This document shows, in pieces, positions 3,696-35,564 of a DNA stretch of 64,000 nt. Numbering within the stretch: position 1 is the first letter of the stretch; each line of letters opens with the position of its first letter. The stretch is from a virus (Duplodnaviria; Heunggongvirae; Uroviricota; Caudoviricetes). The position numbers and the translations under genes are program-made. Below the pieces are notes generated by a model that saw nothing but the letters and a program-made list of their open reading frames with translations, was not told the origin of the DNA and made no database searches. The stretch is from IMG/VR virus record IMGVR_UViG_3300012533_000005. The stretch is one strand, 5' to 3'.

Positions 3696-3716
3696 CAGTT
3701 ATTTTATAAAATAATT
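3696..3716. promoter_or_regulatory. copy of the 22-bp palindromic element (right arm degenerate)
   Basis: Sequence cagttattttataaaataatt. Confidence 0.5.
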
Positions 3717-4358
3717 TTTAGGGCAATCTTGATTAATTTTGGAAAGCAGATGTGTAGAAAAATACACTAATCATAAAATCACTCACTAAAATTCACTCAC
3801 TATTTTGATGTTTTTTGTAAAATGATGAAATCGCTGTAAGCCTCATGGATAGTAAGAATAACCGTTTGTAAACGGATAATTTCGTGTTTTTTTTAATTGA
3901 AATATTTTTTGGCTGACAAATTAATAAAAAAATAAAACAATCAAGATTTTGTAGTAATATCAATGGTTATAGAACATCAATAAAAATAGTTATTTTTTGT
4001 TGTTTTTTACAATTACTCTGAATCACCTGTAAAATCAATACTCACAGACAGCGTTGTTTTTTTTTAATGATGATTTTTATTGTGATTCTTCTCTGAAATT
4101 TTATAAAACTGTAACCTGATAAAAAAAAGAAAGGGCGAAGTTGAGAACTTACACCCATTTCTTTTGGCTACAAACCTATTCTACGGTCAGGCAGGGGAAG
4201 GAAGTAGCCGCAAAAGTAATCATATTATATGGTAAATACAAGTAAAACGCATTTTTTTTACGCTCCTATGGTTTAATTTGATAGAATCTGAATGTATTTG
4301 GTTGCTTTTACTGTTTAACTCTGTTTGGCAGCTATTTAACTTGAACGGCTGCGGCAAT

Positions 4359-4382
4359 GATATGGATATGGATATGGATATG
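4359..4382. repeat. (GATATG)x4 tandem hexamer
   Basis: Sequence gatatggatatggatatggatatg. Confidence 0.7.
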
Positions 4383-4401
4383 CAGTAATCATATTTAGCC
4401 T

Positions 4402-4436
4402 TTTAACGGCTTTTGCCGTTTCGGGATGGTTTCCCG
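4402..4436. other. two adjacent short hairpins (AACGGC-TTTT-GCCGTT; CGGGA-TGGTT-TCCCG)
   Basis: Inverted repeats read directly. GGGCGGG recurs at 4485-4491, as in the 5' repeat block. Confidence 0.35.
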
Positions 4437-4538
4437 TGCCTGAAATCATATAAAACACCTGAAATTGACAATAAATAGCTTTTTGGGCGGGTTCTTATTG
4501 GTCGGCTGGTTGCTGGTATTCTATTTAGTTATGGGAAA

Positions 4539-4586
4539 TTAGGAGGTTAGGAGGCAATTAGGAGGTTAGTTAGGAGGTTAGGAGTA
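4539..4586. repeat. (TTAGGAGG)x5 tandem repeat
   Basis: Sequence attaggaggttaggaggcaattaggaggttagttaggaggttaggag. Confidence 0.7.
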
Positions 4587-4593
4587 TCATTTT

Positions 4594-4610
4594 GGGGTAG
4601 GGTAGGGTAT
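4594..4610. repeat. GGGGTAGGGTAGGGTAT G-tract repeat
   Basis: Three GGGTAG units. The same GGGTAG motif occurs in the block at 150-520. Confidence 0.5.
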
Positions 4611-4611
4611 T

Positions 4612-4668
4612 TAATGTCTAAATTAATGTCTAGTTTATGTCTAGTTATGTCTAAAAAATGTCCGATTT
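4612..4668. repeat. (A)ATGTCTA x5 tandem heptamer
   Basis: Sequence aatgtctaaattaatgtctagtttatgtctagttatgtctaaaaaatgtcc. Confidence 0.65.
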
Positions 4669-4929
4669 TAGCATAATAACAGGTTAAATAATATACATAT
4701 ATAGTATGTGTTATAAAATACACGTTTTTTACCCCAAAAATACAGCCATGTACCTAGATAGGTAAGGGTTATGGCGGTTCTGTATATGCCACGAAAACAG
4801 CCTAAATATCCTATATAATGACTTAATCTTTACACGCTTTAACATATTTTAACATTAAATATTAGGTTTTCGCTCAGTTCGGTTGTATCTTTACATCATA
4901 ATACGGTCAGGTATATAGTTAATGCAGTT

Positions 4930-5235
4930 ATGAATATCGAAAGTTTTCAAGTAAATGAAAAGGTTATGGTTAAGATACCCAATCTTAGAAGCAAAACACC
5001 TAATGCAGAGCATTTTGTTGAGGGTATTGTTACTTCTAAAGGAATGATATACCCTTCTCATGGCTCTAAACATCCTCCATACGCAAGTTTCAAAGTGAAG
5101 TATATTCATACTTATTATAGGAAATTAAGTGATAAATACAATGGTTTAGTTTGGGTTGGTGAAGAAGGTGAGATTTATGATAAAGAAAATGAATCCCTGT
5201 TCTTTTATGAAAGTACAATTAAAAAAGCAAATTAA
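4930..5235 (+). CDS. hypothetical protein (101 aa)
   Basis: ORF follows the long non-coding region. ACGGTCA lies 25 nt upstream. Confidence 0.5.
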   Translation: MNIESFQVNEKVMVKIPNLRSKTPNAEHFVEGIVTSKGMIYPSHGSKHPPYASFKVKYIHTYYRKLSDKYNGLVWVGEEGEIYDKENESLFFYESTIKKAN

Positions 5236-5243
5236 ATCAAGTT

Positions 5244-5265
5244 CAGTTATTTTATAAAATAATTG
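5244..5265. promoter_or_regulatory. 22-bp palindromic element copy
   Basis: Sequence cagttattttataaaataattg, 9 nt after the stop codon. Confidence 0.6.
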
Positions 5266-5314
5266 AAGTGCAAAATAATCAAGTTTTAATAAAAAAACAT
5301 TAAAAATAAATCAA

Positions 5315-5788
5315 ATGTCAAAAAAAGAGTCATTAATTTACCAAAATGGTATCAGCGTTAAGCTTTCAAACGAAAAAAGCGAAGATTTCTTTCATTCTGC
5401 CTTATGTAACGGATTAAATGAAGTTGGTGGGTATGGATTAGAATTGGTTTATGATAAAGCAGAGTACAAAAATGCTAAAGAAAGCTTGGTAAATAAAATC
5501 AAAAAAGGCATAATCCCTATCGGTATGCACGTTTACGGTAATGATAAATTAACCGAAAAATCAATATGTTACGAGGATGTTTTGGTTGAAATATTAAGAA
5601 TTGGTGGTAAATTATCACTTAAAGGAAACGGAGAAACCAAATCAATAACACTATCTACCGTTCACAAAAGAGTTGAAAAAACAGATTTAAGGCATTTGAT
5701 TGAATACATTAATGAAACAGGTGGAGATGCTATAACTGCCGATGTAATCCTTCAAACCGTATTTTTAGATAAAGTTATTTACGGTTAA
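5315..5788 (+). CDS. hypothetical protein (157 aa)
   Basis: ORF with the AAAAATAAATCAAATG leader. Confidence 0.55.
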   Translation: MSKKESLIYQNGISVKLSNEKSEDFFHSALCNGLNEVGGYGLELVYDKAEYKNAKESLVNKIKKGIIPIGMHVYGNDKLTEKSICYEDVLVEILRIGGKLSLKGNGETKSITLSTVHKRVEKTDLRHLIEYINETGGDAITADVILQTVFLDKVIYG

Positions 5789-5807
5789 TTATTTTATAAG
5801 ATAACTG
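5787..5807. promoter_or_regulatory. 22-bp palindromic element copy (overlaps the stop codon)
   Basis: Sequence aattattttataagataactg. Confidence 0.55.
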
Positions 5808-5830
5808 AATAATCAAAATTAATATAAACT

Positions 5831-6055
5831 ATGCCAAAATTAAAAATTACCGAAGTTTCAATTACCGTTGGTAGGTCAAAAACAACAATGTCAAAGGAAA
5901 ATATTAAGCACGTTGAAGTATCACTATCAAATAAAGACCACTTTTCTATTGAAATTGATAACGATGGGGATATTTCAATAACATCAAACTCGGATAAGAG
6001 GATTAAAGTTGTAGGGCAAGAGGAAAATGAGTTGGTAATTAAGTTAATTAAATAA
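5831..6055 (+). CDS. hypothetical protein (74 aa)
   Basis: Short ORF between two palindrome copies. Confidence 0.45.
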   Translation: MPKLKITEVSITVGRSKTTMSKENIKHVEVSLSNKDHFSIEIDNDGDISITSNSDKRIKVVGQEENELVIKLIK

Positions 6056-6070
6056 TCAAAAAACAGCATC

Positions 6071-6092
6071 CAATTATTTTATAAAATAACTG
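6071..6092. promoter_or_regulatory. 22-bp palindromic element copy
   Basis: Sequence caattattttataaaataactg. Confidence 0.6.
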
Positions 6093-6132
6093 AATAATCA
6101 AAAATTAATTAATAATCAAAAAAATAAATCAA

Positions 6133-6693
6133 ATGAGAGAGAAATCAGTAACATTAAGACAAAAAGCATTAGGAATGAAAGATAAACTATTAGGAGATGT
6201 AGTTGGGTTTGTTAACGATAACGAATATAGACCAATTTATCAGATGGCAAAGGATATTAAGGTTAAAATCATTGATTGGAAACCTATTGTTGAAAAACTT
6301 AAATCATCTCACGAAAGCCTTAAAGACCTAAACCTTGATATTAGGTCGGGAAATGGTATAATTTTTATCGGTGAAAAGAAACAACCCGTACTAATTGATT
6401 CTGAATGTTGTGGAGTTGATTCTGAAACAAAAAACCTTATGATTGGAGATAAGTTTATGACAGTTGAATTTATTGAAGGTATTGGTGTTTTTAAGAAAGA
6501 AGAAGGTTTTATCGCTATGATGCCAATGTTTTATGTTGATTTTGACTACGATGATATTGAAAAATGCTTCACAGGTGAGGAAAAGGAACTTTGGGAGTTT
6601 ATGGGAGGGCGTTACGAATACAACCCCCGTATCCATAATAACCTAAGAGGTATTGTTGAACTTTACAAAGGAATTGATAAAAGAAAAAAATAA
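6133..6693 (+). CDS. hypothetical protein (186 aa)
   Basis: ORF with the AAAAATAAATCAAATG leader. Confidence 0.55.
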   Translation: MREKSVTLRQKALGMKDKLLGDVVGFVNDNEYRPIYQMAKDIKVKIIDWKPIVEKLKSSHESLKDLNLDIRSGNGIIFIGEKKQPVLIDSECCGVDSETKNLMIGDKFMTVEFIEGIGVFKKEEGFIAMMPMFYVDFDYDDIEKCFTGEEKELWEFMGGRYEYNPRIHNNLRGIVELYKGIDKRKK

Positions 6694-6715
6694 TCAAAAT
6701 TAATTAAATCAAATT

Positions 6716-7075
6716 ATGACAAAGAAATTCACATTACTTCAGTTGTTCTCGATTGTAGATGGTAGATTAGCAACTAAAATAGAGGATGTTTATGATATGT
6801 TAAATCATGTTTGCGACACGCAATTAATGACACATCATCTTCCTGTTGCTATGAACTACTTAAAGGAAAAGAACCCAAGTTGGTTTCAGGAATGTGAAAA
6901 ATATATTTCCAAAATGGGAATTACAAAAGATGTTCCTTTTGGTGTATGTTTGGCTAAAATTAAAGTTGATAATCCAATTTATGATATTCCTCAGTTAAAG
7001 GATGAATTTGTTACTTCTGACTTTTTTATTTACATGGGTGATAATTCATTATTAAAAAAAATAGGCACTAAATAA
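6716..7075 (+). CDS. hypothetical protein (119 aa)
   Basis: ORF with the TAAATCAAATTATG leader. Confidence 0.5.
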   Translation: MTKKFTLLQLFSIVDGRLATKIEDVYDMLNHVCDTQLMTHHLPVAMNYLKEKNPSWFQECEKYISKMGITKDVPFGVCLAKIKVDNPIYDIPQLKDEFVTSDFFIYMGDNSLLKKIGTK

Positions 7076-7097
7076 TCAAAATTAAATAAATCAAGTT

Positions 7098-7724
7098 ATG
7101 AAGGCTTACAATAAATTCAAAGAAAAATATTACCTACCAATAATGGAGCTGATTGAGGCACAAAGAATGGCTTTTCCCGAAACAGGATTGCACGGTTACG
7201 CACACATAGCAAGATGTTTGGTATTAACCCACGTTTTATGTAAAATGCACGAAATTGATGAAGAAAACGAATTAAAGTGTTTGATTGCTATTGGTTTACA
7301 CGATGTTGCGAGAGAGGATGATGGAGAAGATTTATGGGAAGAACAAAGTGGACTTGTTGCTAAAGAGTTTTGTGCTAAACACGGATTCAACCCTGAGTTT
7401 CAGGAGGAAGTTTATAAGCTAATTACTGAAAAGACCTATGTAGAGAACCTGCCGACAAAGAATTTTATTGTTTGCCACGATGCCGATTGCTTGGATATTA
7501 TTAGATGTTTCGGTATTGACCGTTTTGATACAAGACATTTTGCTTCATTTCCCGATAAAGCAGGTTTACGTGATTTCTTGATTCAGGATACTTGTACGTT
7601 AATTGATTGCACTTATCTTGATGAATACGAATATGATAATAAAAACTCTTTATTGCTTATGGAGCGAAACATTAAAAACGCTTGGAGTTGGAAGTTTTAT
7701 TCAATAGCAACCTTATTAAATTAA
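7098..7724 (+). CDS. HD-domain metal-dependent phosphohydrolase-like protein
   Basis: H...HD...D pattern: LHGYAHIARC, GLHDVARED and VCHDADCLD. Confidence 0.5.
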   Translation: MKAYNKFKEKYYLPIMELIEAQRMAFPETGLHGYAHIARCLVLTHVLCKMHEIDEENELKCLIAIGLHDVAREDDGEDLWEEQSGLVAKEFCAKHGFNPEFQEEVYKLITEKTYVENLPTKNFIVCHDADCLDIIRCFGIDRFDTRHFASFPDKAGLRDFLIQDTCTLIDCTYLDEYEYDNKNSLLLMERNIKNAWSWKFYSIATLLN

Positions 7725-7733
7725 ATACAACAA

Positions 7734-7915
7734 TGGAAATGAGAAACAGGCACTATGAAAGTGTTAAATCAAAAGCCAAAAGAATTGCCGATTTATTCCC
7801 GATAGATGAATTGCTATTCAAGGAAAGAAAGGGTAAATTCCTTACACACGAAGAAAAAATGCGTTTAAAAAAATACGCTGAAGAACAACGTAAAAAGAAA
7901 CAATCAAAAAAATAA
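7734..7915 (+). CDS. hypothetical basic protein (about 60 aa; start trimmed to the first ATG after the upstream stop)
   Basis: The track ORF 7682-7915 overlaps the upstream gene. MEMRNRH begins at 7734. Confidence 0.4.
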
Positions 7916-7921
7916 ATCAAG

Positions 7922-8590
7922 ATGTATAAAAACAAAAAATATATCGACCTCAACACAATTTATAAAGGTGAGTTGGTTTCAGAAACATATACTATTGATA
8001 AAGTCCGATTAACCGAAAGTGAGGTTTCTTTGGAGGGAATGAGAAACTTCAGGAATTATTGGCTTACAGCAGGTTTGAAAGCTGAGTTTGATTACATTCG
8101 CCTTGTTAAGAAAAAGGATGGTAGAGGCGTTATGATGTCCGATACACCTATGGAACGTAACACTAATCGAAAATTCCTACAAAAAGCCAATGGTGATGTT
8201 GTTATTTTTGGTCTTGGTCTTGGTTTAATTGTTTTTCCTTTATTGGATGATGCTGATGTTAAATCAATTACTATTGTTGAACTTTATCAGGATTTAATTG
8301 ATGTTGTTCAACCAAAAATTGAGGCAAAGGATAAACAAAATAAGGTTAAAATAGTACAGGGAGATTGCTTTACTTATGAATTTCCTAAAGGAACAAAGTT
8401 CGATACTATCTATTTTGATATTTGGATTAACATTTGTGGCGACAATTACGAGGAGCAAAAGAAGCTTGAACGTAGATTCAGAAAGCACTTAAATAAAGAT
8501 AACTCAAGGTTTTTTATGGATAGTTGGATGAAAGACCATTACAAAGCAGAAAAGGCAAGAGAGAGAAGAAGTGGTGGTTATGGGTGGTGA
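7922..8590 (+). CDS. hypothetical protein, possible Rossmann-fold methyltransferase-like
   Basis: VVIFGLGLGLI glycine-rich motif followed by IVELYQDLI. The evidence is weak. Confidence 0.5.
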   Translation: MYKNKKYIDLNTIYKGELVSETYTIDKVRLTESEVSLEGMRNFRNYWLTAGLKAEFDYIRLVKKKDGRGVMMSDTPMERNTNRKFLQKANGDVVIFGLGLGLIVFPLLDDADVKSITIVELYQDLIDVVQPKIEAKDKQNKVKIVQGDCFTYEFPKGTKFDTIYFDIWINICGDNYEEQKKLERRFRKHLNKDNSRFFMDSWMKDHYKAEKARERRSGGYGW

Positions 8591-8609
8591 TTATTTTATA
8601 AAATAACTG
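8589..8609. promoter_or_regulatory. 22-bp palindromic element copy
   Basis: Sequence gattattttataaaataactg. Confidence 0.55.
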
Positions 8610-8644
8610 AAACAATCAAAATTAAATCAATTAATTATCTCCAA

Positions 8645-8673
8645 AAATAACTGATTATTTTATAAAATAACTG
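8645..8673. promoter_or_regulatory. 22-bp palindromic element copy with an extra left half-site
   Basis: Sequence aaataactgattattttataaaataactg. Confidence 0.55.
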
Positions 8674-8679
8674 AAACGA

Positions 8680-9462
8680 ATGAAAATCAATAAAAACAAT
8701 CAACTTGGATTAAATTTCACTCAAAATATAAAGGATGAATTTTATAATCTTCATAATGATAAGTATTTTAAGCAACAACCCGAAGAATTTATAAGACCTT
8801 ACAGGGAACAATGGTTAAATATACTTAGTGATGATGGTAATAAGAACCTGTTGTTTACTAAAACATCATTAAGTGTAGCTAATAATATCAAAATTGAAAA
8901 ATTTAAACCTAGTATGCTTAAAATAAAGCAGGAAAAGAAGCTGACATTCCTTATTAACGATAGTAGATTTTACCGTGTTCTGTTGAAAAATGATGAAATA
9001 ATGGCTATAAAGGTAACAAAAACAAGGGTGAGTGATGGTAAGGATTATATTTCTTATGATTCATTTAAGATTTTACCATTAAAAAACATTGTTATATACC
9101 CACAAAATCAAGATGATTATATTAATGATAAACATTTCGCTGAGTTTCTTAAATTACTTATCTTTATTGAATATAGCGATGTAGAAGAAATCAACATGAA
9201 CCCTAACCAAACATACGGAACAAGAAAACAGGGTAAATTTCTAAATGAAACTGACAAGAACTTTATTATAGTTGATTCGGCTTGGAACAAAATAATAATA
9301 AATACAGGTAAATTTGGAGTTTCAGGACATCCACGATATTTATTAAGAGATGGCGGTATAAAGGTTGTTTATATTAAGGAATATACCAAGAATGGATATA
9401 CAAGAGGTTTTAGAAAGAGTCAAATAGACAATAATCAAACGGATAATAATCAAAATAATTAA
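8680..9462 (+). CDS. hypothetical protein (260 aa)
   Basis: Long ORF. Contains RDGGIKVVYI near the C-terminus. Confidence 0.55.
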   Translation: MKINKNNQLGLNFTQNIKDEFYNLHNDKYFKQQPEEFIRPYREQWLNILSDDGNKNLLFTKTSLSVANNIKIEKFKPSMLKIKQEKKLTFLINDSRFYRVLLKNDEIMAIKVTKTRVSDGKDYISYDSFKILPLKNIVIYPQNQDDYINDKHFAEFLKLLIFIEYSDVEEINMNPNQTYGTRKQGKFLNETDKNFIIVDSAWNKIIINTGKFGVSGHPRYLLRDGGIKVVYIKEYTKNGYTRGFRKSQIDNNQTDNNQNN

Positions 9463-9483
9463 ATCAAGTTAAAAAAATAAGTG

Positions 9484-10068: not shown

Positions 10069-10097
10069 ACAATTAAATTAATCAAAAATAACCTATT

Positions 10098-10160
10098 CAG
10101 TTATTTTATAAAATAACCCAATTATTTTAAAAGATAATTCAGTTATTTTTAAAAATAACC
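10098..10160. promoter_or_regulatory. three tandem copies of the palindromic element
   Basis: cagttattttataaaataacc / caattattttaaaagataatt / cagttatttttaaaaataacc. Confidence 0.6.
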
Positions 10161-10183
10161 AAATCAAATAAAAACAATTCAAA

Positions 10184-10504: not shown

Positions 10505-10507
10505 TTT

Positions 10508-10530: not shown

Positions 10531-10842
10531 ATGACAAAACCAAAATCAAATAAAATCAAAATATTCTGTCGGAATGGTAAATCTGTTGAAGTAACCAAAA
10601 ATTATGTTGAGGGTATTAAGAAGCAGATGGTTCGTAAGATTAAAGCTGACAGGATTCAACACCCTGAGATTGCCGAGCTTTATTTCTATGGTATAGCTGA
10701 ATATTGCCATATTGAGGAAACGGGTAAAAACGTACTTGTTATAGAGTACGGAGATGCTCTATCCGCATTAGATAAGGATAAAAAAGGAAGGGTTTATGTA
10801 GAAGTTCCTATCAGGGTTAGACCAAGTAGAAAAAGTTGTTAG
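10531..10842 (+). CDS. hypothetical protein (103 aa)
   Basis: ORF. Confidence 0.5.
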   Translation: MTKPKSNKIKIFCRNGKSVEVTKNYVEGIKKQMVRKIKADRIQHPEIAELYFYGIAEYCHIEETGKNVLVIEYGDALSALDKDKKGRVYVEVPIRVRPSRKSC

Positions 10843-10882
10843 TTATTTTTAAAAATAACTCAGTTATTTTATAAAATAATCG
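10841..10882. promoter_or_regulatory. two tandem copies of the palindromic element
   Basis: agttatttttaaaaataact + cagttattttataaaataatcg. Confidence 0.6.
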
Positions 10883-10940: not shown

Positions 10941-11510
10941 TTGAGTAAATCTCATAATAATAAAGGTGGTAGTATTGCATCGAATGGTTATAAGCTAATT
11001 TATGTTGGTAAAGAACATCATTTATCAGATGTTAGGGGATATGCTTATGAACATAGAGTTGTTGCTGAAATAAAATACGGTAGACGATTATTACCAACAG
11101 AGGAAGTTCATCATAAAGACCATGATAAACTTAATAACTCACCTGAAAATTTAGAAATATCAGATTCAAAAAAACACCACAGGTTTCTTCATAGGGTGAA
11201 AGAATCTGATTTAAGATTACCTGATGAAGAAAATGTTTTAATTAAATGCAAGTGTGGTTGTGGTTCTGAATTTATGAGGTACGATTATAGTGGGCGACCA
11301 AGACTTTATATTTCAGGTCATAATCCATCTGACAATAGCGGTGAGAAATTTATTTTGGAACAAATAAAATTAGGTAATAATACAACAAAAGGAATACTTT
11401 ATAAGTATGGTAAAAATACAATAAAGACAATATTAAGCAGAATGGTTAAAGATGGTATAATTTCAAGGATTTCTTTAGGTATTTATAAATTGAAAACAAA
11501 TGAAGGATAG
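10941..11510 (+). CDS. HNH homing endonuclease
   Basis: GYAYEHRVVAEIKYGRRL...EEVHHKDHDKLNNSPENL, which is an HNH motif. The start is TTG. The Cys-rich C-terminus CKCGCGSEF is zinc-ribbon-like. Confidence 0.65.
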   Translation: MSKSHNNKGGSIASNGYKLIYVGKEHHLSDVRGYAYEHRVVAEIKYGRRLLPTEEVHHKDHDKLNNSPENLEISDSKKHHRFLHRVKESDLRLPDEENVLIKCKCGCGSEFMRYDYSGRPRLYISGHNPSDNSGEKFILEQIKLGNNTTKGILYKYGKNTIKTILSRMVKDGIISRISLGIYKLKTNEG

Positions 11511-12276
11511 TAAGATAGAATGGTGTACACACACTACAAATTTATGGCACGGATGTACTCATGCTCAAAGTATTGGATGTGATAATTGTTACGCTGAAGT
11601 TTTATCCCATAGGTGGGGTAAAAATGTTTGGGGTAATAATAATCCAAGACTTGAAACTAAAACTTGGGCTAAAGATTTAATTAAATATCAAAAAAAGGCT
11701 TTAGAATCAAATGACATACATAGTGTTTTTGTAGGCTCTATGATGGATATTTTTGAGAAAAGGATGCCATTGATAAATCATAAAGGTGAGAAGTTAGAGT
11801 ATGATACGAATGATTTAAGGGTTAAATTGTTTGAAGATATAATACCAATTACACCAAATTTACTGTATTTACTATTAACTAAAAGACCACCGAATATAAA
11901 TAAACAAATACCCGAATCATGGAAGTCAAATCCACCAAAAAATGTAATATTTGGAACAAGTCCTGTTAATCAAGAAACAGCAGATAGAATGATTCCACAG
12001 ATATTAGAGGTTAACGGTAATATATTTCTAAGCATAGAGCCTATGTTGGATAAGATAATTCTAAAACCTGAGTGGTTTAAATCAGGTAAAATAAAACAGA
12101 TTATCGTTGGTGGTGAGAGTGGACATGGTAAAAGACCTTTCAATCCTGATTGGGCAAGGTCTATTATGGCTCAATGTAAAGAGTTTAATGTCCCATTTTT
12201 TATGAAACAATGGGATAAAATACAGGAGATACCCGATGATTTAATGCTAAGAGAATTTCCTTCAGTTATTTTATAA
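11500..12276 (+). CDS. phage Gp37/Gp68-family (DUF5131-like) protein
   Basis: N-terminus IEWCTHTTNLWHGCTHAQSIGCDNCYAE matches the family's IEW...W.GC...GC..CYA signature. Confidence 0.55.
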   Translation: MKDSKIEWCTHTTNLWHGCTHAQSIGCDNCYAEVLSHRWGKNVWGNNNPRLETKTWAKDLIKYQKKALESNDIHSVFVGSMMDIFEKRMPLINHKGEKLEYDTNDLRVKLFEDIIPITPNLLYLLLTKRPPNINKQIPESWKSNPPKNVIFGTSPVNQETADRMIPQILEVNGNIFLSIEPMLDKIILKPEWFKSGKIKQIIVGGESGHGKRPFNPDWARSIMAQCKEFNVPFFMKQWDKIQEIPDDLMLREFPSVIL

Positions 12277-12536: not shown

Positions 12537-12578
12537 CAGTTATTTTATAAAATAATTCAGTTATTTTTAAAAATAACC
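12537..12578. promoter_or_regulatory. two tandem copies of the palindromic element
   Basis: cagttattttataaaataatt + cagttatttttaaaaataacc. Confidence 0.6.
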
Positions 12579-12610
12579 AAACCAAAATAAATCAAACAAA
12601 ATAAATCAAA

Positions 12611-12841
12611 ATGAAATCAACAATATTAATAACTCCGACAACCAACATTGTAAATATGGCTGTGGTTGATAATAGTAAGGTCGAGAAGCGTACATACGAT
12701 TCTGATATGGATGTTTTTACCTTTTATAATGTAAAGCGAGAACATACACGGAAGGCAAACCTAATGGATGTTTCCCTTTACGATGATGTTATTGTAGAAA
12801 ATGATGTTCATTATAAGATATTACAAATGTTATCAAAATAA
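12611..12841 (+). CDS. hypothetical protein (76 aa)
   Basis: ORF with the AAATAAATCAAAATG leader. Confidence 0.5.
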   Translation: MKSTILITPTTNIVNMAVVDNSKVEKRTYDSDMDVFTFYNVKREHTRKANLMDVSLYDDVIVENDVHYKILQMLSK

Positions 12842-14075: not shown

Positions 14076-14585
14076 ATGAAATTAATTCCTCTAAGTGGTA
14101 AACACGGTATTGGTAAATTCGCTCAAGTAGATGATGATGATTATGAGCATCTAATGAAGTGGAAATGGCATATATCAGGTCGGTATATTAGACGATGGCG
14201 TAAAAAAGAAGATGTTGGAAAATCATCCTATATTCTAATGCACAGGTATATAGTTGGTCTGTATGATGATAAAAAAGTTTGCGACCATAAAGACCGTAAT
14301 ATTTTAAATTGTCAAAAATCAAATCTAAGAATATGTACACAATTAGAGAATAGTAGGAACAGGAGTGGATTCGGTAAATCAAAGTATTTAGGCGTTAACG
14401 CTCATATTAGAAGGCATAATGGAAAGGAATATAAAAGCTTTAATGTTTCTATATATTATAATAAAAAAATAAAACATTTAGGTACTTTTCCATTTACTTC
14501 TGAAGGAGAAATTTTAGGTGCTAAATGTTATGATGAATCAGCCAAAATTTATTTTGGAGAGTTTGCAAATTTAAACTTTAAATAA
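14076..14585 (+). CDS. HNH homing endonuclease (HNH_3 type with AP2-like C-terminal domain)
   Basis: MHRYIVGLYDDKKVCDHKDRNILNCQKSNLRICTQLENSRN, followed by YLGVNAH...GKEYKSFNVSIYYNKKIKHLGTF, which is AP2-like. Confidence 0.6.
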   Translation: MKLIPLSGKHGIGKFAQVDDDDYEHLMKWKWHISGRYIRRWRKKEDVGKSSYILMHRYIVGLYDDKKVCDHKDRNILNCQKSNLRICTQLENSRNRSGFGKSKYLGVNAHIRRHNGKEYKSFNVSIYYNKKIKHLGTFPFTSEGEILGAKCYDESAKIYFGEFANLNFK

Positions 14586-29694: not shown

Positions 29695-29901
29695 TTGATG
29701 TTAGGTAAAAAATGTAGTTTCTGTCAAAAAAACTTTGTCGTCGGGGATAGGTATGAGCAATATGGAGAAGATTATTCTCATACAAAATGCCTTGACGAAC
29801 AAATGTTTTTGCATAGGCATAATCCATATACCGAATTAGTACTTCTGAGAAATAAATTAAATCAATTAATTATAAGAAATGAGAGTAGAGTTCAATTATA
29901 A
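29695..29901 (+). CDS. small Cys-containing protein (68 aa), possible zinc ribbon
   Basis: CSFCQKN...HTKCLDE. Confidence 0.4.
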   Translation: MMLGKKCSFCQKNFVVGDRYEQYGEDYSHTKCLDEQMFLHRHNPYTELVLLRNKLNQLIIRNESRVQL

Positions 29902-30334: not shown

Positions 30335-30340
30335 TAAAAA

Positions 30341-30646
30341 ATGGACAACGTAAAAGAAACATTAAAAGAAGTATTCAAAGAGAAGTTTGGTGAAAATTGG
30401 CATTACGAATATCTTAATTTTGAACATAGTTCAGGTTTTTATAATGAAGTAATAACTGCATTAGAAAGGGTTAGGGAAAAACAAATGGAGGTATTAATAA
30501 AAACAGCTCCAAGCGACGAACTGATTGCTGATATTATTAATGAAGTAACGGTTAATGAGATTGGCATTGGTGTTAAGCCTTTCTATTTAGAGCAAAGAAT
30601 TAAAGGTGCTAAAATAATTATTGGATTATTAAAGGGAGAAAAATAA
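30341..30646 (+). CDS. hypothetical protein (101 aa)
   Basis: ORF. Confidence 0.5.
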   Translation: MDNVKETLKEVFKEKFGENWHYEYLNFEHSSGFYNEVITALERVREKQMEVLIKTAPSDELIADIINEVTVNEIGIGVKPFYLEQRIKGAKIIIGLLKGEK

Positions 30647-30666
30647 AATTACTAAAACAAAACACG

Positions 30667-30876
30667 ATGGAAAGTTTAACGGCAGAACAAAGAGAACAAA
30701 TTGCTTTAGAGGAATTTAGAAAACAACCGCTACAAAATATATGCACGGTTGCCGTTATTAAAATTGCAGAAGTTGCTATAAGCACTAATGCAGATAACGG
30801 AGTTGTTGAAACAGCCGCAACGATAAACGGTAAAAGATATAAGGTAAAGGCAGTTGTTACTTACGAATCTAACTAA
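30667..30876 (+). CDS. hypothetical protein (69 aa)
   Basis: ORF. Confidence 0.45.
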   Translation: MESLTAEQREQIALEEFRKQPLQNICTVAVIKIAEVAISTNADNGVVETAATINGKRYKVKAVVTYESN

Positions 30877-31078
30877 AAATAAAATGGAAGTTGTCAAAAA
30901 AATAACATTCAAATTAAGCTGTAAAGTTATATATTTTAACAATATGAAATTGTATTGGTATATAAGGAATGAATGTGATTACATTTACGGTGTGTGTACA
31001 AGAATTTACGCTTGGTCTTGTACCTGTTACAAATAAAATTAATTAAAATGGCGGACACAAATTAAAATTTAATTAAAA

Positions 31079-31525
31079 ATGATATTAAAAGGAAGTAGAT
31101 TAGAGTTTATCAGTTGGATAAAAAGAGATGGTAGTGGAACAGAACCCATTACTGAAGATTATTTAAAAATATTACAAGACGAGAAGTTTGAAGTTAATTG
31201 CTTGTCATTAAGCGAAAATACTCACATAGCAAGTGGATTTAATTCTTTTGTAGTAAGAATTAAAAAAGCAGATATTACTGAAAAACAATTAACTCCAATG
31301 CAGGAATTTTACGATTGGATTTATAGAAACGGAATGAGTCCCGATTGTGGTATTCCTGCTATTAAAGAAAAAGTAAAGGAATTAATTGTAAAAGAAAAGG
31401 AAGTTATTATAACTTTTGCAAATAAACTTGTAGAAATTCAGGTTGAAGGATGTGGATGTTTTAAGAATGGTAGTTCGGAAGAAGAATCAGAAGAATTGTT
31501 TAAAAAAATATTTGAAATAGAATAA
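31079..31525 (+). CDS. hypothetical protein (148 aa)
   Basis: ORF. Confidence 0.5.
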   Translation: MILKGSRLEFISWIKRDGSGTEPITEDYLKILQDEKFEVNCLSLSENTHIASGFNSFVVRIKKADITEKQLTPMQEFYDWIYRNGMSPDCGIPAIKEKVKELIVKEKEVIITFANKLVEIQVEGCGCFKNGSSEEESEELFKKIFEIE

Positions 31526-31768
31526 ATGGAAAAAAAACTAACCCCTATTCAGGAATTAATTAAAGAATTTGAGAACATTAAGGAAACCAAATGTAAAACA
31601 CTACAAGAGGTGGTTTTTTTTGATGGTGTTTTAGCTATAATTGAATCCAAATATGTTGCTAAAGAAAAGAAAATCATTATTGATACCTATGATAGTAATG
31701 GGGTAGTTAATGGTAAATTGTGTGGAAACGGAAAGCAGTATTATAAAGAAAAATTTAAAAACAAATAA
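31526..31768 (+). CDS. hypothetical protein (80 aa)
   Basis: ORF. Confidence 0.45.
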   Translation: MEKKLTPIQELIKEFENIKETKCKTLQEVVFFDGVLAIIESKYVAKEKKIIIDTYDSNGVVNGKLCGNGKQYYKEKFKNK

Positions 31769-31770
31769 AC

Positions 31771-32544
31771 ATGGAAAATAAACTACCTATACTATTAGAC
31801 AGACCGATAGCCTTCTTTGACTGTGAAACGACTGGACTGGATATTGGAAAAGATAGAATAATTTCACTTGCAGTAACAAAATTAATGCCTGATGGAACAA
31901 GACTATCAAAGAACTCTCTCATTAACCCAATGATTCCTATTTCTGCTGAAGCAACTGCTATACACGGAATAACAAATGAAGATTTAATTGATAAGCCTAA
32001 GTTTTCTCAATTAGCCAAGTCCTTGTATGAATTTATGAAAGGTTGCTACATAGCAGGATATAATAATAACCACTTTGATAACCCGATATTGCAGGAGGAA
32101 TTTTCAAGATGCGATATAGAGTTTCCTAACTATGATGAAGTTAGTATTGATGTTTGTGGGATATTCAAGCACTTTGAAAAAAGGGACTTATCATCAGCAT
32201 TAAAGTTTTATTGTAATAAAACTATGGAGAACGCTCATAATGCCCAAGCGGATATTGATGCTACTGTTGATGTGTTTTTAGCCCAATTAACGAGATACGA
32301 TGAATTAAAGGATAAAAACATAATTGAAATATCTAAGATTGGTAGGAATGAAAACTCAGTCGATTGGCAAGGTCGTATTGTTCTTGATGCTGATGGTGAT
32401 TATTCTTGGAATTTCGGTAAAGTGAAAGGTAAAAAGATAAAAAATGAATTAGGATTTGGTGATTGGGTATTAACAAATGATTTCCCCGAAACGTTTAAAG
32501 CATTGGTTAGAAGGATAAAAGAGGATATAAATTCTAAAAAGTAG
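31771..32544 (+). CDS. DEDD-family 3'-5' exonuclease (DnaQ / Pol III epsilon-like)
   Basis: Exo I motif FFDCETTGLD, Exo II motif YIAGYNNNHFDNPIL and Exo III motif HNAQADIDATVDVF. Confidence 0.7.
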   Translation: MENKLPILLDRPIAFFDCETTGLDIGKDRIISLAVTKLMPDGTRLSKNSLINPMIPISAEATAIHGITNEDLIDKPKFSQLAKSLYEFMKGCYIAGYNNNHFDNPILQEEFSRCDIEFPNYDEVSIDVCGIFKHFEKRDLSSALKFYCNKTMENAHNAQADIDATVDVFLAQLTRYDELKDKNIIEISKIGRNENSVDWQGRIVLDADGDYSWNFGKVKGKKIKNELGFGDWVLTNDFPETFKALVRRIKEDINSKK

Positions 32545-32547
32545 TAT

Positions 32548-32578
32548 TTTGATATATTAATTCTAAGTTATGTATCTT
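32548..32578 (+). promoter_or_regulatory. Bacteroidota sigma-A-type promoter (TTTG, 19-nt spacer, TAtcTTTG)
   Basis: TTTG at 32548-32551 and TATCTTTG at 32571-32578. ATG at 32595. Confidence 0.45.
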
Positions 32579-32594
32579 TGATAAAAAAAATAAA

Positions 32595-32849
32595 ATGGAA
32601 AAAATAAGTTGTATAGTAAAGTTGGAAGGACATGAAGAAACTACAATGGAGTTTATATCTACCCCAAAGAAAGGCGAAAATATTGTTTATAATGACGAAA
32701 AATTTGAGGTAAAAGTTGTTAGTCATGTAATTGTTAAAAGACCGCCAACCGAACTTGAGAGAGAGGTTAATCTAGCTAGAGATATTATTTCAGATACTAT
32801 TGAAGAAAATAAAGTAATGATACACGCAAGTAAAATAAAAGGATTATAG
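32595..32849 (+). CDS. hypothetical protein (84 aa)
   Basis: ORF. Confidence 0.5.
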   Translation: MEKISCIVKLEGHEETTMEFISTPKKGENIVYNDEKFEVKVVSHVIVKRPPTELEREVNLARDIISDTIEENKVMIHASKIKGL

Positions 32850-32861
32850 TGTTAATTAAGT

Positions 32862-33590
32862 ATGGATGGTGGATATACAAAACTGATAGATAAGGCAAGA
32901 AAATTGAAGGCATTGGCGGACAGGGGTAATGGCGGAGAGATGGATACGGCAAAGAGATTCTATGAAGAATTTTTGCATAAAAATAATATATCTGAACAAG
33001 AAATTGATTCGGAGTATTTCAAAAGAACATTCGTTTTGGCGGACAGCGAGTACGAGATACTTTTAAGTCATATCATAATGTCTGTAAATCCATTTTGTAC
33101 TATAAACAGAACTGAAAATCATAGGTTTTTAGTTAGCTTAGACGACGAGGACTTTATTGAGGTTGAGCATAAATTTATGGTTTTTCATAATCTTTTTAAA
33201 AGTGATGAAAAACGAATGTTAAAAAGATACAGTAAGTTGGATAAAAAGGATTATGAAAAAGAAAAGTTCATATTTCTGTCAGGATTTTTAAACTTTCATC
33301 AAAAGCACTTTGCCCCTGATACATACTCCGTTTCAAAGCAAAGAGGTTCTGATGGTCGTAATATTAATCCCGATATGGCGGACAAAGTTAGTGATGCTGT
33401 GTCGGATAATAAAATTGAAAAAAAAGAGATTATTGAGGAAAAAGTTAAGGATGCTAAGAAGAAGTTAAATGAAGCTCCTCAACCGAAAACATTTAGTGAA
33501 AAAGAGATAGATAAACTAATTGAATATACTGAAGATTATACTCCAATTAGTTATGTGAGGGCTAAGAGAACATTAGCAGAGAGCTATTAA
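32862..33590 (+). CDS. DUF2786-like N-terminal domain protein (242 aa); paralogous N-terminus with 39420-39779
   Basis: KLIDKARKLKALADRGNGGEMDTAKRFYEEFLHKNNISEQE aligns with KIKSLITKVKALADKGEGGEKENAKKKLSELLDKYNITKFEE. Confidence 0.5.
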   Translation: MDGGYTKLIDKARKLKALADRGNGGEMDTAKRFYEEFLHKNNISEQEIDSEYFKRTFVLADSEYEILLSHIIMSVNPFCTINRTENHRFLVSLDDEDFIEVEHKFMVFHNLFKSDEKRMLKRYSKLDKKDYEKEKFIFLSGFLNFHQKHFAPDTYSVSKQRGSDGRNINPDMADKVSDAVSDNKIEKKEIIEEKVKDAKKKLNEAPQPKTFSEKEIDKLIEYTEDYTPISYVRAKRTLAESY

Positions 33591-33613
33591 TATTTTAAAT
33601 TGTTGATAAATTC

Positions 33614-33635
33614 CAGTTATTTTATAAAATAACTG
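33614..33635. promoter_or_regulatory. perfect copy of the 22-bp palindrome CAGTTATTTTATAAAATAACTG
   Basis: Exact palindrome, isolated from the main cluster. Confidence 0.6.
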
Positions 33636-33681
33636 ATTGAATTAAAGAAACGACGTATTATATTTGTGAATAGGCTATAAA

Positions 33682-33960
33682 ATGTTAAGTGTTTTCAAAA
33701 AAAAAGAATTTAATCTCGGTCAATATCTTATTGAGTTAGGTTATTTTAAGACAGAGCAAACTGTTAGTCATACAACTTATAGTGATGGTGCTTATTGTAT
33801 AAGTATTTTTATAAAAGAAAGAGGTGGTTACAACATGGTAACGATAACATTAGATGATTTTAATTTAGCTACACTTAGGTTTATCCCAAATTCAAAGACA
33901 ATGATGGATATGATTTTAAATAGTATAAAGTCGGAGGTTGATAGTAATGAGGAGGTATAG
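33682..33960 (+). CDS. hypothetical protein (92 aa)
   Basis: ORF. Confidence 0.45.
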   Translation: MLSVFKKKEFNLGQYLIELGYFKTEQTVSHTTYSDGAYCISIFIKERGGYNMVTITLDDFNLATLRFIPNSKTMMDMILNSIKSEVDSNEEV

Positions 33961-34059
33961 TAAAATGGCACTAACAGCGTTAATAATTAGTCTTATTAAT
34001 TTATTATGCTTAATAGCATTTGTTTTTTTAATTTTTAATAGATAATAAATAAGTACAGA

Positions 34060-34299
34060 ATGGAACAAACAGGAGTTAAAAAAGAAGGGTTGAATCAAGC
34101 ATTAAATGAAGCTTTATCAAAGTCAACGGAGAAGGAAAGAATTATTGCGGTGTTGGATTGTGTTCGTGGTTATCGTAATGAATATAATAGAGATTTAGAA
34201 GAAGAAAAAGATAAATTTGAGGGATTCAATAAATGTAAAAGTGAATATCGTAATCAAATTCAAAAAGTAAAAGAATATGTTAATAAACATGATTTTTAA
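34060..34299 (+). CDS. hypothetical protein (79 aa)
   Basis: ORF. Confidence 0.45.
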   Translation: MEQTGVKKEGLNQALNEALSKSTEKERIIAVLDCVRGYRNEYNRDLEEEKDKFEGFNKCKSEYRNQIQKVKEYVNKHDF

Positions 34300-34313
34300 T
34301 AATTTTTTTTATA

Positions 34314-34517
34314 ATGGAAAATAATCAAGAAAATAATCAAGAAAATCCACACTCACAGCTAGGTGTGTGTGATGTTCATAGGTTAGTTAATAAGGACTAT
34401 GACACAAGAGAGGTTCAGTATTGTGGCTTATGTGATGCTTGGATGTGTAAAGACTGTTTTGGTAATTATCCTAAAAGGGCTTTAGCTGCATCAATAAAAC
34501 TAGCAAGAGGAGAATAA
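34314..34517 (+). CDS. small Cys-rich (zinc-finger-like) protein
   Basis: CDVHRL...CGLCDAWMCKDC. Confidence 0.45.
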   Translation: MENNQENNQENPHSQLGVCDVHRLVNKDYDTREVQYCGLCDAWMCKDCFGNYPKRALAASIKLARGE

Positions 34518-34598
34518 TAATAGTTTTTTCGATAAAAGTATTTTAACTTTTATCTATGGATAGGTTTTTAGTAAGGAAATTTTTAAAGTAAAGATAAG

Positions 34599-34820
34599 AT
34601 GGATAGTAATAGTGCAACAATTAAATTAACATTAGCCGAATTTTATGCTTTCGGATTAGTGAATCAAAGAATCTATATAAATCAAGATATTGATTTTATA
34701 AAGGCTGAACTACAAGAAATCTGTAATACTAACAGATTAATCTCAATAACGACGTATTCAGCCACTCCAGCAGAAATATTAACTTTTAACGGTCAAAACG
34801 ATGAACGATATTCAGAATAG
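34599..34820 (+). CDS. hypothetical protein (73 aa)
   Basis: ORF. Confidence 0.4.
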   Translation: MDSNSATIKLTLAEFYAFGLVNQRIYINQDIDFIKAELQEICNTNRLISITTYSATPAEILTFNGQNDERYSE

Positions 34821-35115
34821 AGTATTAAAACCATTTTGGCGTACAGATGGTATGGATAAGGTTGCTGACTTGGGTGAGATGAAACAGGCTGTTGTAGTGG
34901 CTTTTTATACCCCAAGAGGCGGTATTAATTACTATTCAATAAGCCCTAGAAGCTATTTCCCATTCACAGATACTCAACTTCATAAGAAATACGATGATTA
35001 TTACGATTGTTGTATTTACGCTGAATCAATTATATTGGATTGGGTTAAGTCACTCTTAATAAACGAAAGTGATATTCTGATATTGGATGGAGTTAAGAAA
35101 ATGTTATATAAATAA
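34801..35115 (+). CDS. hypothetical protein (104 aa)
   Basis: ORF. Confidence 0.45.
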   Translation: MNDIQNRVLKPFWRTDGMDKVADLGEMKQAVVVAFYTPRGGINYYSISPRSYFPFTDTQLHKKYDDYYDCCIYAESIILDWVKSLLINESDILILDGVKKMLYK

Positions 35116-35147
35116 TAAACAAACAAATAAACAAACAAACCAAAATC

Positions 35148-35477
35148 ATGACAAAAAGTAAAGTTAAAAAAGCAGCAAAAGCTGTAAAAAAAACAGTTGT
35201 TAAATCACCTGTAAAGAAAGCCGTAGCTAAGAAAGCCGTAGCTAAGAAAGTAGTCGTTAATAAACCAGCAGTTAAGAAAGCTACTGAAAATAAAAATTCA
35301 GTTAAAGCTAATTCAGCAAAAGCTAATGCTAGTAATTGGGATGCTCCTAAAGCAGAGTCTTTAAAAAAAGGTGGTAAAAAAGTAAGTGCAAAGAAGGTTT
35401 CTATGCCTCCAAAAGCGACACCTACAAGAAAAGGACAGAAAAAACAAACTATTAATAAGCCATTAACAGGCAATTAA
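35148..35477 (+). CDS. histone H1-like / Lys-Ala-rich DNA-binding protein
   Basis: MTKSKVKKAAKAVKKTVVKSPVKKAVAKKAVAKKVVVNKPAVKKATENK. Leader AAACAAACAAATAAACAAACAAACC. Confidence 0.55.
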   Translation: MTKSKVKKAAKAVKKTVVKSPVKKAVAKKAVAKKVVVNKPAVKKATENKNSVKANSAKANASNWDAPKAESLKKGGKKVSAKKVSMPPKATPTRKGQKKQTINKPLTGN

Positions 35478-35488
35478 TAAGTCCTTTT

Positions 35489-35564
35489 CAGTTATTTTAT
35501 AAAATAATTGGAATCACATCCAGTTATTTTATAAAATAATCCAGTTATTTTATAAAATAATTGG
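35489..35564. promoter_or_regulatory. three copies of the 22-bp palindromic element (operator-like array)
   Basis: Copies at 35489-35510, 35521-35541 and 35543-35564. They lie upstream of 35587-35970 and the XRE regulator gene. Confidence 0.6.

Follow-up and report, generated by a model that had tools for sequence, protein, structure and literature searches.

Several groups of phages control their genes through short repeated sites that resemble those described here. In the lambdoid phages (lambda, 434 and P22), Cro and CI operators are dyads of 14-18 bp that are read by helix-turn-helix dimers, and the repressor of the Streptomyces phage phiC31 reportedly acts on a set of conserved inverted repeats (CIRs). 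Regulation in phages of the Bacteroidota, such as the uncultivated phage studied here, is in our assessment poorly known next to that of coliphages or mycobacteriophages, and a literature search on this subject returned nothing relevant. The primary-sigma promoter consensus of the Bacteroidota consists of a -7 box, TAnnTTTG, with a -33 TTG. The repressors of cluster A mycobacteriophages (gp71 of L5 and its relatives) have more than 20 sites, the stoperators, distributed over the genome (PMC9283540, PMC6550527); they are asymmetric 13-mers in one orientation relative to transcription, bound by a monomeric two-domain repressor (PMC9283540). The PeSL cassettes of T4-type phages associate a strong sigma-70 promoter with an efficient terminator stem-loop (PMC2839356, PMC4122927).

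Copies of the palindrome and their placement

Scanning the 64,000-nucleotide stretch of phage DNA analysed here (hereafter, the window) with a 22-mer and at most 3 mismatches gave 15 matches against 0.02 expected, and the 16-bp core TTATTTTATAAAATAA, with at most 2 mismatches, gave 21 where 1.6 were expected, 20 of which fall in the interval 3678-35560. The repeat is genuine and greatly exceeds chance expectation. A first-pass annotation had described about 17 copies, close variants included, of a perfect 22-bp palindrome; the repetition is borne out by these counts, but not the perfection, since only a single copy (33614-33635) is a perfect 22-bp palindrome. The dyad is for the most part a 16-bp perfect palindrome, TTATTTTATAAAATAA, whose symmetry is weakly extended to 22 bp. 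Altogether, this AT-rich element of 16-22 bp is represented by 23 sites, namely 14 with a perfect 16-bp core, 6 with one or two core mismatches and 3 looser variants, and no extra copies were found elsewhere in the window or in about 10 kb beyond it. In the list of positions of the first-pass annotation, the copy placed at 8645 is really 8652-8673; the list was also incomplete, having missed 3675-3696 and the looser relatives at 2742-2763, 3635-3656 and 8632-8653. The sites of the left non-coding and early regions are the following (sites carry no strand):

2742-2763: variant site CAATTATTTTTGGTAATAACTG in a long non-coding region, with a TTAT-N8-ATAA frame and the -7 box TATTTTTG inside
3635-3656: variant site TGATTATCTTTGGAGATAACTG with the embedded -7 box TATCTTTG, a likely promoter, followed by two sites
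3675-3717: two copies 21 bp apart, one degenerate (3675-3696) and one with a perfect core (3696-3717)
3735-3742, + strand: -7 box TAATTTTG, 20 bp downstream of the core at 3699
5244-5265: single copy between genes 4930-5235 and 5315-5788, in a gap without a -7 box
5786-5807: single copy with 1 core mismatch, its left flank being the stop codon of gene 5315-5788
6071-6092: single copy upstream of gene 6133-6693
8588-8673: three-site cluster, the first site (8588-8609) with a stop codon as its left flank, the second (8632-8653) being the variant TTATCTCCAAAAATAA, of the G-containing type but reversed, and the third (8652-8673) lying 6 nt ahead of the ATG at 8680; positions 8588-8613 and 8652-8677 form a 26-nt direct repeat
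10098-10161: triple array with a 21-bp period, TTATTTTATAAAATAA, TTATTTTAAAAGATAA and TTATTTTTAAAAATAA
10508-10529: single copy filling a 26-nt gap and ending 1 nt before the ATG at 10531
10840-10882: double array with a 21-bp period, the first copy, TTATTTTTAAAAATAA, overlapping a stop codon
12263-12284: single copy with the stop codon of gene 11500-12276 at the dyad centre
12537-12579: double array with a 21-bp period, upstream of gene 12611-12841

All 23 sites are intergenic or overlap a stop codon, intergenic DNA making up about 9% of the window, which agrees with the intergenic placement claimed earlier, as does the overlap of the copy at 12263 with the last codons of its gene. Copies had further been said to start usually within 0-10 nt of the upstream stop codon; for 7 of the 11 gaps preceded by a gene, the first copy does start -14 to +11 nt relative to the end of that codon, but for the other 4 it starts 15-29 nt past it. 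Adjacent copies are spaced by 20-21, 32, 44 or 64 bp, which places them on the same face of the helix. The nine short early-gene gaps between 5.2 and 12.6 kb hold 16 sites and are devoid of a TAnnTTTG box.

The XRE operon and its relatives

The remaining sites are found at two predicted promoters, the second of which precedes a regulator gene:

33614-33635: perfect 22-bp palindrome, 26 bp upstream of a -7 box
33659-33666, + strand: -7 box TATATTTG, predicted promoter for gene 33682-33960
35489-35563: triple array with cores at 35492, 35524 and 35545 (spacing 32 and 21 bp)
35566-35573, + strand: -7 box TAAATTTG, predicted promoter of the DUF3127-XRE operon, from the consensus and its conservation in relatives
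35587-35970, + strand: DUF3127 / single-strand-DNA-binding-like gene, first of the operon
35973-36200, + strand: XRE/Cro-type helix-turn-helix protein of 75 aa, the candidate binder, with the recognition helix ETYQISQLCSG

Both triple arrays that had been reported, at 10098-10161 and 35489-35563, were thus recovered, and the last copy of the latter ends 5 nt short of the -7 box. The 75-aa protein clearly belongs to HTH_3/HTH_26, and an alignment pairs it with DdrO/XRE regulators in the PDB; neither a partner repressor nor a divergent switch accompanies it.

This adjacency of a helix-turn-helix regulator gene and an array at its own predicted promoter recurs in relatives. About 38 related metagenomic loci show synteny of the module DUF3127-XRE-(194 aa)-492 aa, XRE being a conserved core gene in this family of uncultivated phages from fresh water and wastewater. 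In the 400 bp upstream of the DUF3127-XRE module, where about 0.1 TTAT-N8-ATAA sites would be expected by chance, at least 15 distinct relatives carry two or more of them, and these arrays usually end at a TAnnTTTG box. In two phages without DUF3127 (L030 and L039), the arrays still stand directly upstream of XRE. Family-wide, 55 of 77 distinct neighbouring site pairs deviate by at most 1.6 bp from a multiple of 10.5 bp, against 31% expected if spacing were uniform. In the relative L217, whose orthologous proteins are about 58% to 97% identical to those of the window, the early-region sites are kept at orthologous gaps, including the three different copies of the triple array at 10098-10161.

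Across the window and its relatives, changes in the centre of the dyad accompany changes in the XRE recognition helix, as follows:

YQISQLCSG: site TTATTTTATAAAATAA (window, L028, L222 and L030)
YQVSKICSG: site TTATCTTCAAAAATAA (L022)
YQVSNLCTG: site TTATTTTTGAAGATAA (L025)
CQISNIVSG: site TTATATTATAATATAA (L039)
YKISQLC[A/M]G: site TTATTAAnnnnAATAA

This co-variation is correlative, covering about a dozen lineages and being partly confounded by phylogeny, and its key cases are L030 and L222; the XRE protein of L030 is 53% identical overall to that of the window, with the same helix and an identical 16-mer. The gap orthologous to that at 33.6 kb carries the L022-type site in L022 and the window-type site here.

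Operators, promoters, joints or hairpins

Array-XRE synteny, helical phasing and the co-variation of dyad centre and recognition helix argue for the palindromes being operators of a dimeric phage-encoded regulator, most probably the 75-aa XRE/Cro-type protein, a reading to which we give somewhat better than even chances. They also fit the earlier proposal of a dyad for a dimeric helix-turn-helix protein with an autoregulated array at XRE. From the sequence we infer that this protein binds, that it does so as a dimer, and that it represses rather than activates. Each subunit would contact one half-site, TTATTTT or AAAATAA, with a weak extension to CAG...CTG, and dimers bound to copies on one helix face could cooperate. 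At its own operon, three sites extend to within 5 bp of the -7 box (35566) and cover the expected position of the -33 element, so that the protein would repress its own synthesis. The promoter at 33.6 kb would be controlled through the one site 26 bp upstream of the box at 33659, and in the left non-coding region the putative target would be the -7 box embedded in the variant at 3635-3656, together with the two sites that follow. In the nine early gaps, the bound protein would most likely block RNA polymerase arriving from upstream; alternatively, weak -7-like boxes (TATTTTTA in three copies) would be occluded. Under either mode, accumulation of the regulator would switch off the entire early block, and occupancy of the early gaps by the XRE regulator probably serves this shut-off. 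As 16 of the 23 sites have no adjoining recognisable promoter, a classical operator role needs the extra assumption of a roadblock. The binder could also be another uncharacterised small protein.

That the palindromes are instead early promoters, with degenerate or activator-dependent -7 boxes each driving the downstream gene and with the XRE protein or another factor as activator or without a role, seems unlikely to us. The first-pass annotation had found no TAnnTTTG match in the element, which is true of the consensus copies; when examined for a Bacteroidota primary-sigma promoter, they read TATTTTAT and have no -7 box. It is not true of two variants in this phage (2742 and 3635 only) and of many copies in relatives, which hold the box inside the dyad. 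Neither is the element unrelated to such boxes, three sites abutting one or lying 20-26 bp upstream of it. The left half, TATTTTAT / TATTTTTA, does resemble TAnnTTTG, and copies in the same frame in relatives contain the full box (TTATTTTTGAAGATAA in L217, L025 and L221; TTATATTTGAATATAA in L219), among them the L217 orthologue of the first copy of the 10840-10882 array; in L221 such copies are the only boxes in the gaps. Moreover, an orthologous promoter in distant relatives varies between G and A at the last box position, and a copy stands 1-80 nt upstream of the ATG of nearly every early gene. Since some related copies contain a full -7 box, some members of the site family may be promoters, not operators. 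Against a promoter role for the whole set, 14 copies keep TATTTTAT, in which the TTTG part of the box has two mismatches, and the G-containing type is also found reversed, both here (8632-8653) and in L022. Promoters do not show perfect two-fold symmetry or tandem arrays, and the sites at 33.6 and 35.5 kb are followed downstream by a good -7 box of their own. Site-to-box spacing is variable among relatives, which disfavours a positioned activator.

A primary role in recombination or mobility, in which the repeats promote gain, loss and shuffling of early genes in a PeSL-like manner, is distinctly improbable. It has in its favour that the ClpS-like gene, the 114-aa gene and the HNH gene 10941-11510, which differ between the window and L217, adjoin arrays (3-4 of about 6 differences in the one genome pair compared), that the 26-nt direct repeat represents a local duplication at an array, and that the single and double arrays around gene 12301 are swapped between the two phages. 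Other indels between this pair lie away from palindromes, however, and recombination by itself leaves unexplained the dyad symmetry, the phasing on the helix, the association with the XRE operon and with -7 boxes, and the helix co-variation. Recombination is more likely a consequence of the many identical sites, and the apparent clustering of indels at sites probably a side effect; to that extent the recombination hot spots suggested earlier find some support, whereas the anti-termination site suggested alongside them finds none. A site for a host protein, or a DNA function other than transcription (centromere-like partition, replication or packaging), is still less probable. Dispersed 16-bp palindromes do resemble parS-type sites, and an unrelated contig, from a Flavobacteriaceae MAG, has the same 16-mer as a 21-bp-spaced array ahead of an integrase-like gene; but the site sequence shifts between close phages in step with a phage protein, the sites adjoin promoter boxes, and no ParB-like or replication initiator gene was recognised. 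We give least credence of all to an RNA hairpin acting between genes to terminate, process or stabilise the early transcripts. The sites do lie directly past stop codons within the transcribed strand, a stem of 9 bp is possible in the consensus 22-mer, and the A-to-G changes of two variant copies would leave G-U pairs in place. In favour of an operator, by contrast, both central bases are changed symmetrically in the common variant TTATTTTTAAAAATAA, although they would form the loop of any hairpin, where compensation of pairing is not needed. The best fold reaches only -6.1 kcal/mol, variants giving 0 to -3 and several not folding, whereas the real terminators of this genome are GC-rich with T runs and fold at -13.8 and -19.4 kcal/mol, as foreseen by the first-pass annotation, which had judged the element too AT-rich for a stable terminator hairpin. 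Furthermore, in L022, L053 and L062 the centre of the homologous sites lacks self-complementarity, and many copies are upstream of promoters and hence untranscribed. An intrinsic terminator was rejected, as the element lacks a stable GC-containing stem and a T run, and a terminator scan of the window picked up no copy.

If the sites are indeed operators of the XRE protein, they would provide (i) a testable regulator/operator pair, (ii) probable promoter positions (-7 boxes) throughout a widespread family of uncultivated phages from fresh water and wastewater, and (iii) a natural series of helix/operator variants for studying the evolution of DNA-binding specificity. In genome annotation, a repeated palindrome in this phage group would then be read as a binding site, not as a terminator.

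Comparison with described systems

As in the lambdoid phages, tandem sites overlap the predicted promoter of the presumed regulator's own operon, and an AT-rich centre, which tunes affinity there, is found here too. In contrast to them, there is no divergent repressor/Cro pair, the sites are far more numerous and mostly away from promoters, and the promoters are of the Bacteroidota -7/-33 type. With PeSL cassettes the locus shares a repeated regulatory motif between small early genes of a plastic region, and may share gene gain and loss at the repeats; assignment to this class was rejected, a stable stem-loop being absent (hairpin strength at most 6.1 kcal/mol) and the promoter box usually so, as in the consensus copies.

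Like stoperators, the sites occur both at promoters and in short promoter-less gaps, and their motif changes together with the presumed repressor. They are not stoperators proper, being two-fold symmetric and often tandem instead of asymmetric and in one orientation, with a 75-aa single-domain minimal helix-turn-helix candidate in place of a two-domain monomer; they are also confined to the early block and two promoters rather than spread genome-wide. A symmetric, dimer-bound counterpart, in which a minimal Cro-like protein would silence the early block from each gap by blocking elongation, is a tentative idea. Equally speculative is the other part of this joint reading, in which the TTATTTT half-site would imitate the host -7 box and compete for sigma at box-containing copies, the identical sites doubling as joints of early-gene cassettes.

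The phiC31 CIRs likewise are short conserved inverted repeats that reportedly serve as the operator autoregulating the regulator gene and recur in many highly conserved copies between early genes. That phage is temperate, has a host of another phylum with another promoter type, and makes a larger, multi-isoform repressor, whereas the candidate here is a 75-aa XRE protein and the copies stand in 21-bp phased arrays. Scattered repressor sites in early intergenic regions are already known from phiC31, L5 and P1. The palindromes most likely represent a gene switch of a type well known in phages, encountered here in a group that has been little studied.

Repeat, position and genomic setting of the palindrome

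A scan of the window with the 22-mer CAGTTATTTTATAAAATAACTG, allowing up to 3 mismatches, gave 15 matches against 0.02 expected, which upholds the repeat reported by the first-pass annotation as about 17 copies of a perfect 22-bp palindrome; the perfect 22-mer itself, however, occurs only at 33614-33635. With the inner 16-bp palindrome TTATTTTATAAAATAA and up to 2 mismatches, 21 matches were found against 1.6 expected, 20 of them within 3678-35560; 14 copies of this core are perfect and 6 carry 1-2 changes. In the common variant TTATTTTTAAAAATAA the two central bases are altered symmetrically. The flanks CAG and CTG are moderately conserved, about equally left and right after correction for tandem overlap, and the palindrome is thus a true dyad. 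The looser pattern TTAT-N8-ATAA (34 matches versus 13 expected) added three related intergenic sites, at 2745, 3638 and 8635. Equal density inside coding DNA would have spoken against a dedicated element; the 11 matches within genes are at chance level and the whole excess is intergenic. The first copy in a gap frequently overlaps the upstream stop codon or comes straight after it, while the last ends 1-79 nt upstream of the next start codon. No copies occur at 12.6-33.6 kb, beyond 35.6 kb or in the approximately 10 kb past the window end.

G+C content is about 30% in the window, and 101 of its 104 open reading frames lie on the + strand. Neither DNA nor protein searches against GenBank phages found a match, deposited phages include no close relative, and a 436-aa protein had no relatives in an IMG/VR scan; the same genome was recovered in several metagenome assemblies, as contigs of up to ~76-92 kb. 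Scanning the window with Rfam and for tRNA returned nothing. Recognisable genes encode SSB, exonucleases, HNH endonucleases, DUF5131, a type IB topoisomerase-like protein and giant polyvalent proteins. TAnnTTTG is the Bacteroidota -7 promoter element, and good boxes of this kind stand in a few larger gaps; a sigma-70 promoter scan did no better than shuffles, that model being irrelevant to the host type. Shine-Dalgarno sequences are absent before start codons, and an A-rich leader, AAATAAATCAAA(A)ATG, recurs before many genes (e.g. 5300-5314, 12596-12610, 36899-36913); it may signal translation start in hosts of a group that does without Shine-Dalgarno pairing. AATCAA/TTGATT is twofold over-represented (216 versus 111 expected), with 13 + strand copies of TTGATT inside 2723-3734. 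This cluster lies in 2652-4929, 2.3 kb without convincing genes or Rfam match, which contains the left-most palindrome copies, terminator-like hairpins and short tandem repeats (GATATG x4 at 4359, TTAGGAGG-type x6 at 4539, TTAATGTCTAA x4.7 at 4611), and may serve in replication or packaging, or code for small RNAs.

Giant proteins, probably polyvalent injected proteins:
43418-49063, 1881 aa, ADP-ribosyltransferase and GNAT domains
51149-55903, 1584 aa, DUF5661
L019:10919-18097 (just outside the window), 2392 aa, SNF2-like helicase motifs, without RNA polymerase DxDxD

In some strains the giant genes are broken up by frameshifts or stops. The 2392-aa protein was considered as a crAss-like virion RNA polymerase with special promoters and rejected, as it lacks DxDxD and resembles a polyvalent protein with an SNF2-type helicase.

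Arrays in relatives and the XRE protein

Scans of IMG/VR with a 19-mer gave one match, attributable to chance, and with the 16-mer only single chance matches in AT-rich contigs. Searching IMG/VR and GTDB genomes for tandem copies returned five loci, two of them in giant-virus MAGs and one in a Flavobacteriaceae MAG, none with protein homology to the window. In the last of these (L216:190-267, JAIPBH010000019.1), two 16-mers 21 bp apart and one copy with one mismatch precede a TATATTTG box and an integrase-like gene by ~70-140 bp; this array may belong to an unrelated element whose regulator has similar specificity. A literature search on Flavobacterium phage palindromes returned nothing usable.

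Relatives were gathered by a profile scan of metagenome contigs (70 loci), and three genes of the window are relevant here.

35587-35970 (+), DUF3127 gene
35973-36200 (+), 75-aa XRE-type helix-turn-helix protein, the sole DNA-binding regulator recognised by a Pfam scan and by precomputed Pfam annotations
36914-38392, 492-aa glycosyltransferase-like protein with many homologues (46-81% identity)

The XRE gene stands just upstream of the 492-aa gene in about 38 of the 70 loci, often preceded by DUF3127. In these relatives, tandem TTAT-N8-ATAA dyads lie upstream of the XRE operon, commonly with a 20-21 bp period and a TAnnTTTG box at the array end.

Dyads upstream of the XRE operon in relatives:
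L028, window motif, x3-4
L030, 16-mer identical to that of the window, x2
L022, TTATCTTCAAAAATAA-type, x4
L025, TTATTTTTGAAGATAA-type, x4
L039, TTATATTATAATATAA-type, x3
L053, L056, L060, L062 and L070, TTATTAAnnnnAATAA-type

Family-wide, 55 of 77 distinct neighbouring site pairs fall within 1.6 bp of a multiple of 10.5 bp, compared with 31% expected for uniform spacing; the peaks, 20-21 and 32-34 bp, are those of proteins that sit on a single face of the helix.

In the alignment of XRE homologues, the third helix co-varies with the site; comparison with DdrO and further XRE structures, again by alignment, identifies it as the recognition helix. The helix YQISQLCSG and a TTATTTTATAAAATAA-type site are common to the window, L028 and L222, whereas the dyad centre is particular to each of L022, L025, L039 and the YK-helix group. 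The L030 protein is only 53% identical overall (below L022 and L025) and its neighbouring protein 55%, yet L030 shares the helix of the window and its exact 16-mer. In the orthologous promoter gap (33.6 kb) the site is of window type in the window and of L022 type in L022, both 26 bp upstream of TATATTTG, and in L030 and L039 the arrays remain with XRE though DUF3127 is missing. Together these observations point to one phage-encoded factor recognising all copies in each genome. Overall, the palindromes are quite probably protein-binding regulatory DNA sites. The proposed operator array of the XRE protein gains from co-variation and synteny, and this protein is the simplest candidate for the binder of all copies, a reading we somewhat favour on correlative evidence from about a dozen lineages, partly confounded by relatedness.

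Promoter boxes, early gaps and rival readings

According to the first-pass annotation, the motif does not match the TAnnTTTG promoter consensus. This applies to the consensus copies that have no box, but three cores adjoin boxes and two variants contain one.

Core 35545-35560, ends 5 bp upstream of -7 box TAAATTTG (35566)
Core 33617-33632, 26 bp upstream of -7 box TATATTTG (33659)
Core 3699-3714, 20 bp upstream of -7 box TAATTTTG (3735)
Variant sites 3635-3656 and 2742-2763, -7 box inside the site

In promoters of this type transcription starts ~7 nt downstream of the -7 box; the final copy before the XRE operon would thus span roughly -38 to -17, and a dimer bound there would shut polymerase out. 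Since array-to-box spacing varies among relatives, repression fits better than a positioned activator.

Sixteen sites fill nine early gaps (5.2-12.6 kb), none of which contains a TAnnTTTG box; one site ends 1 nt upstream of an ATG. The early regions of relatives were located via homologues of gene 8680-9462. In L217, the close relative (orthologous proteins ~58-97% identical), sites are kept in orthologous gaps, including the same three differing copies of the triple array as in the window, and one copy is TTATTTTTGAAGATAA, a complete -7 box. Arrays of L221 have box-containing copies followed by a window-type palindrome right before the ATG, and L219 has another dyad, AATTATATT..AATATAATT, in triple arrays, some enclosing TATATTTG. 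The box-containing type also occurs in reverse orientation (L022; window 8632-8653) and therefore is not simply a promoter. We read all of these as a single family of putative binding sites with a half-site similar to the -7 box, some copies perhaps being promoters as well, and the consensus copies of the window phage as presumably pure binding sites. In promoter-less gaps, bound sites would act only on polymerase arriving from upstream or on weak TATTTTTA boxes. Roadblock of polymerase has been proposed for stoperators, the dispersed repressor sites of cluster A mycobacteriophages (PMC9283540); for the early-gap copies we regard it as possible, though rather doubtful.

Two other early-region features were seen in relatives. 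L219:2142-3584 encodes a 480-aa protein that matches the RNA polymerase alpha C-terminal domain weakly and has no homologue in the window. Early gaps at L023:4695-4827, L218:2385-2518 and 2834-2973, and L219:8843-8990 carry a different element, a hairpin of roughly 100 nt bordered by TAACGTTT and CTGTTA, with compensatory changes in 9 of 21 predicted pairs; it is not in the window and has no Rfam match.

As RNA, the consensus palindrome folds at -6.1 kcal/mol and variant copies at 0 to -3.7 kcal/mol, as against -13.8 and -19.4 kcal/mol for two real terminators of the window, which have T runs (2690-2717, and 40.3 kb between convergent genes). The palindrome was thus correctly judged too weak for a terminator hairpin, a role ruled out by folding energy, and because the central changes of TTATTTTTAAAAATAA would fall in the loop, the symmetry is kept at the DNA level. 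The suggestion of recombination hot spots fared unevenly. Several differences between the window and L217 adjoin arrays (a ClpS-like gene, a 114-aa gene, HNH gene 10941-11510 and a local duplication, the 26-nt direct repeat 8588-8613/8652-8677), and the single and double arrays flanking gene 12301 are interchanged, but further indels lie away from sites. Similar shuffling next to repeated sites is described for PeSL cassettes of T4-type phages (PMC2839356). We regard shuffling at the arrays as a side effect of so many short repeats being identical. Both HNH endonuclease genes (10941-11510, overlapping the start of the DUF5131 gene, and 14076-14585) are missing or replaced in L217 and look like homing-endonuclease insertions. 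An IS605 OrfB/TnpB-type gene lies at L218:17427-18075, within a relative's 148-kb contig.

Comparison with known systems

The phiC31 repressor has conserved inverted repeats in early intergenic regions. This system, L5-type operators and stoperators, and the classical Cro/CI operators are the closest in how they work. The window sites nevertheless fall outside the stoperator class, because they are symmetric and the candidate protein is a single small domain, and they are not PeSL, since the consensus copies have neither a terminator stem-loop nor a promoter. They are best placed within a known kind, the helix-turn-helix regulator of a phage that has multiple dispersed operators, in this case from a family of uncultivated Bacteroidota phages.
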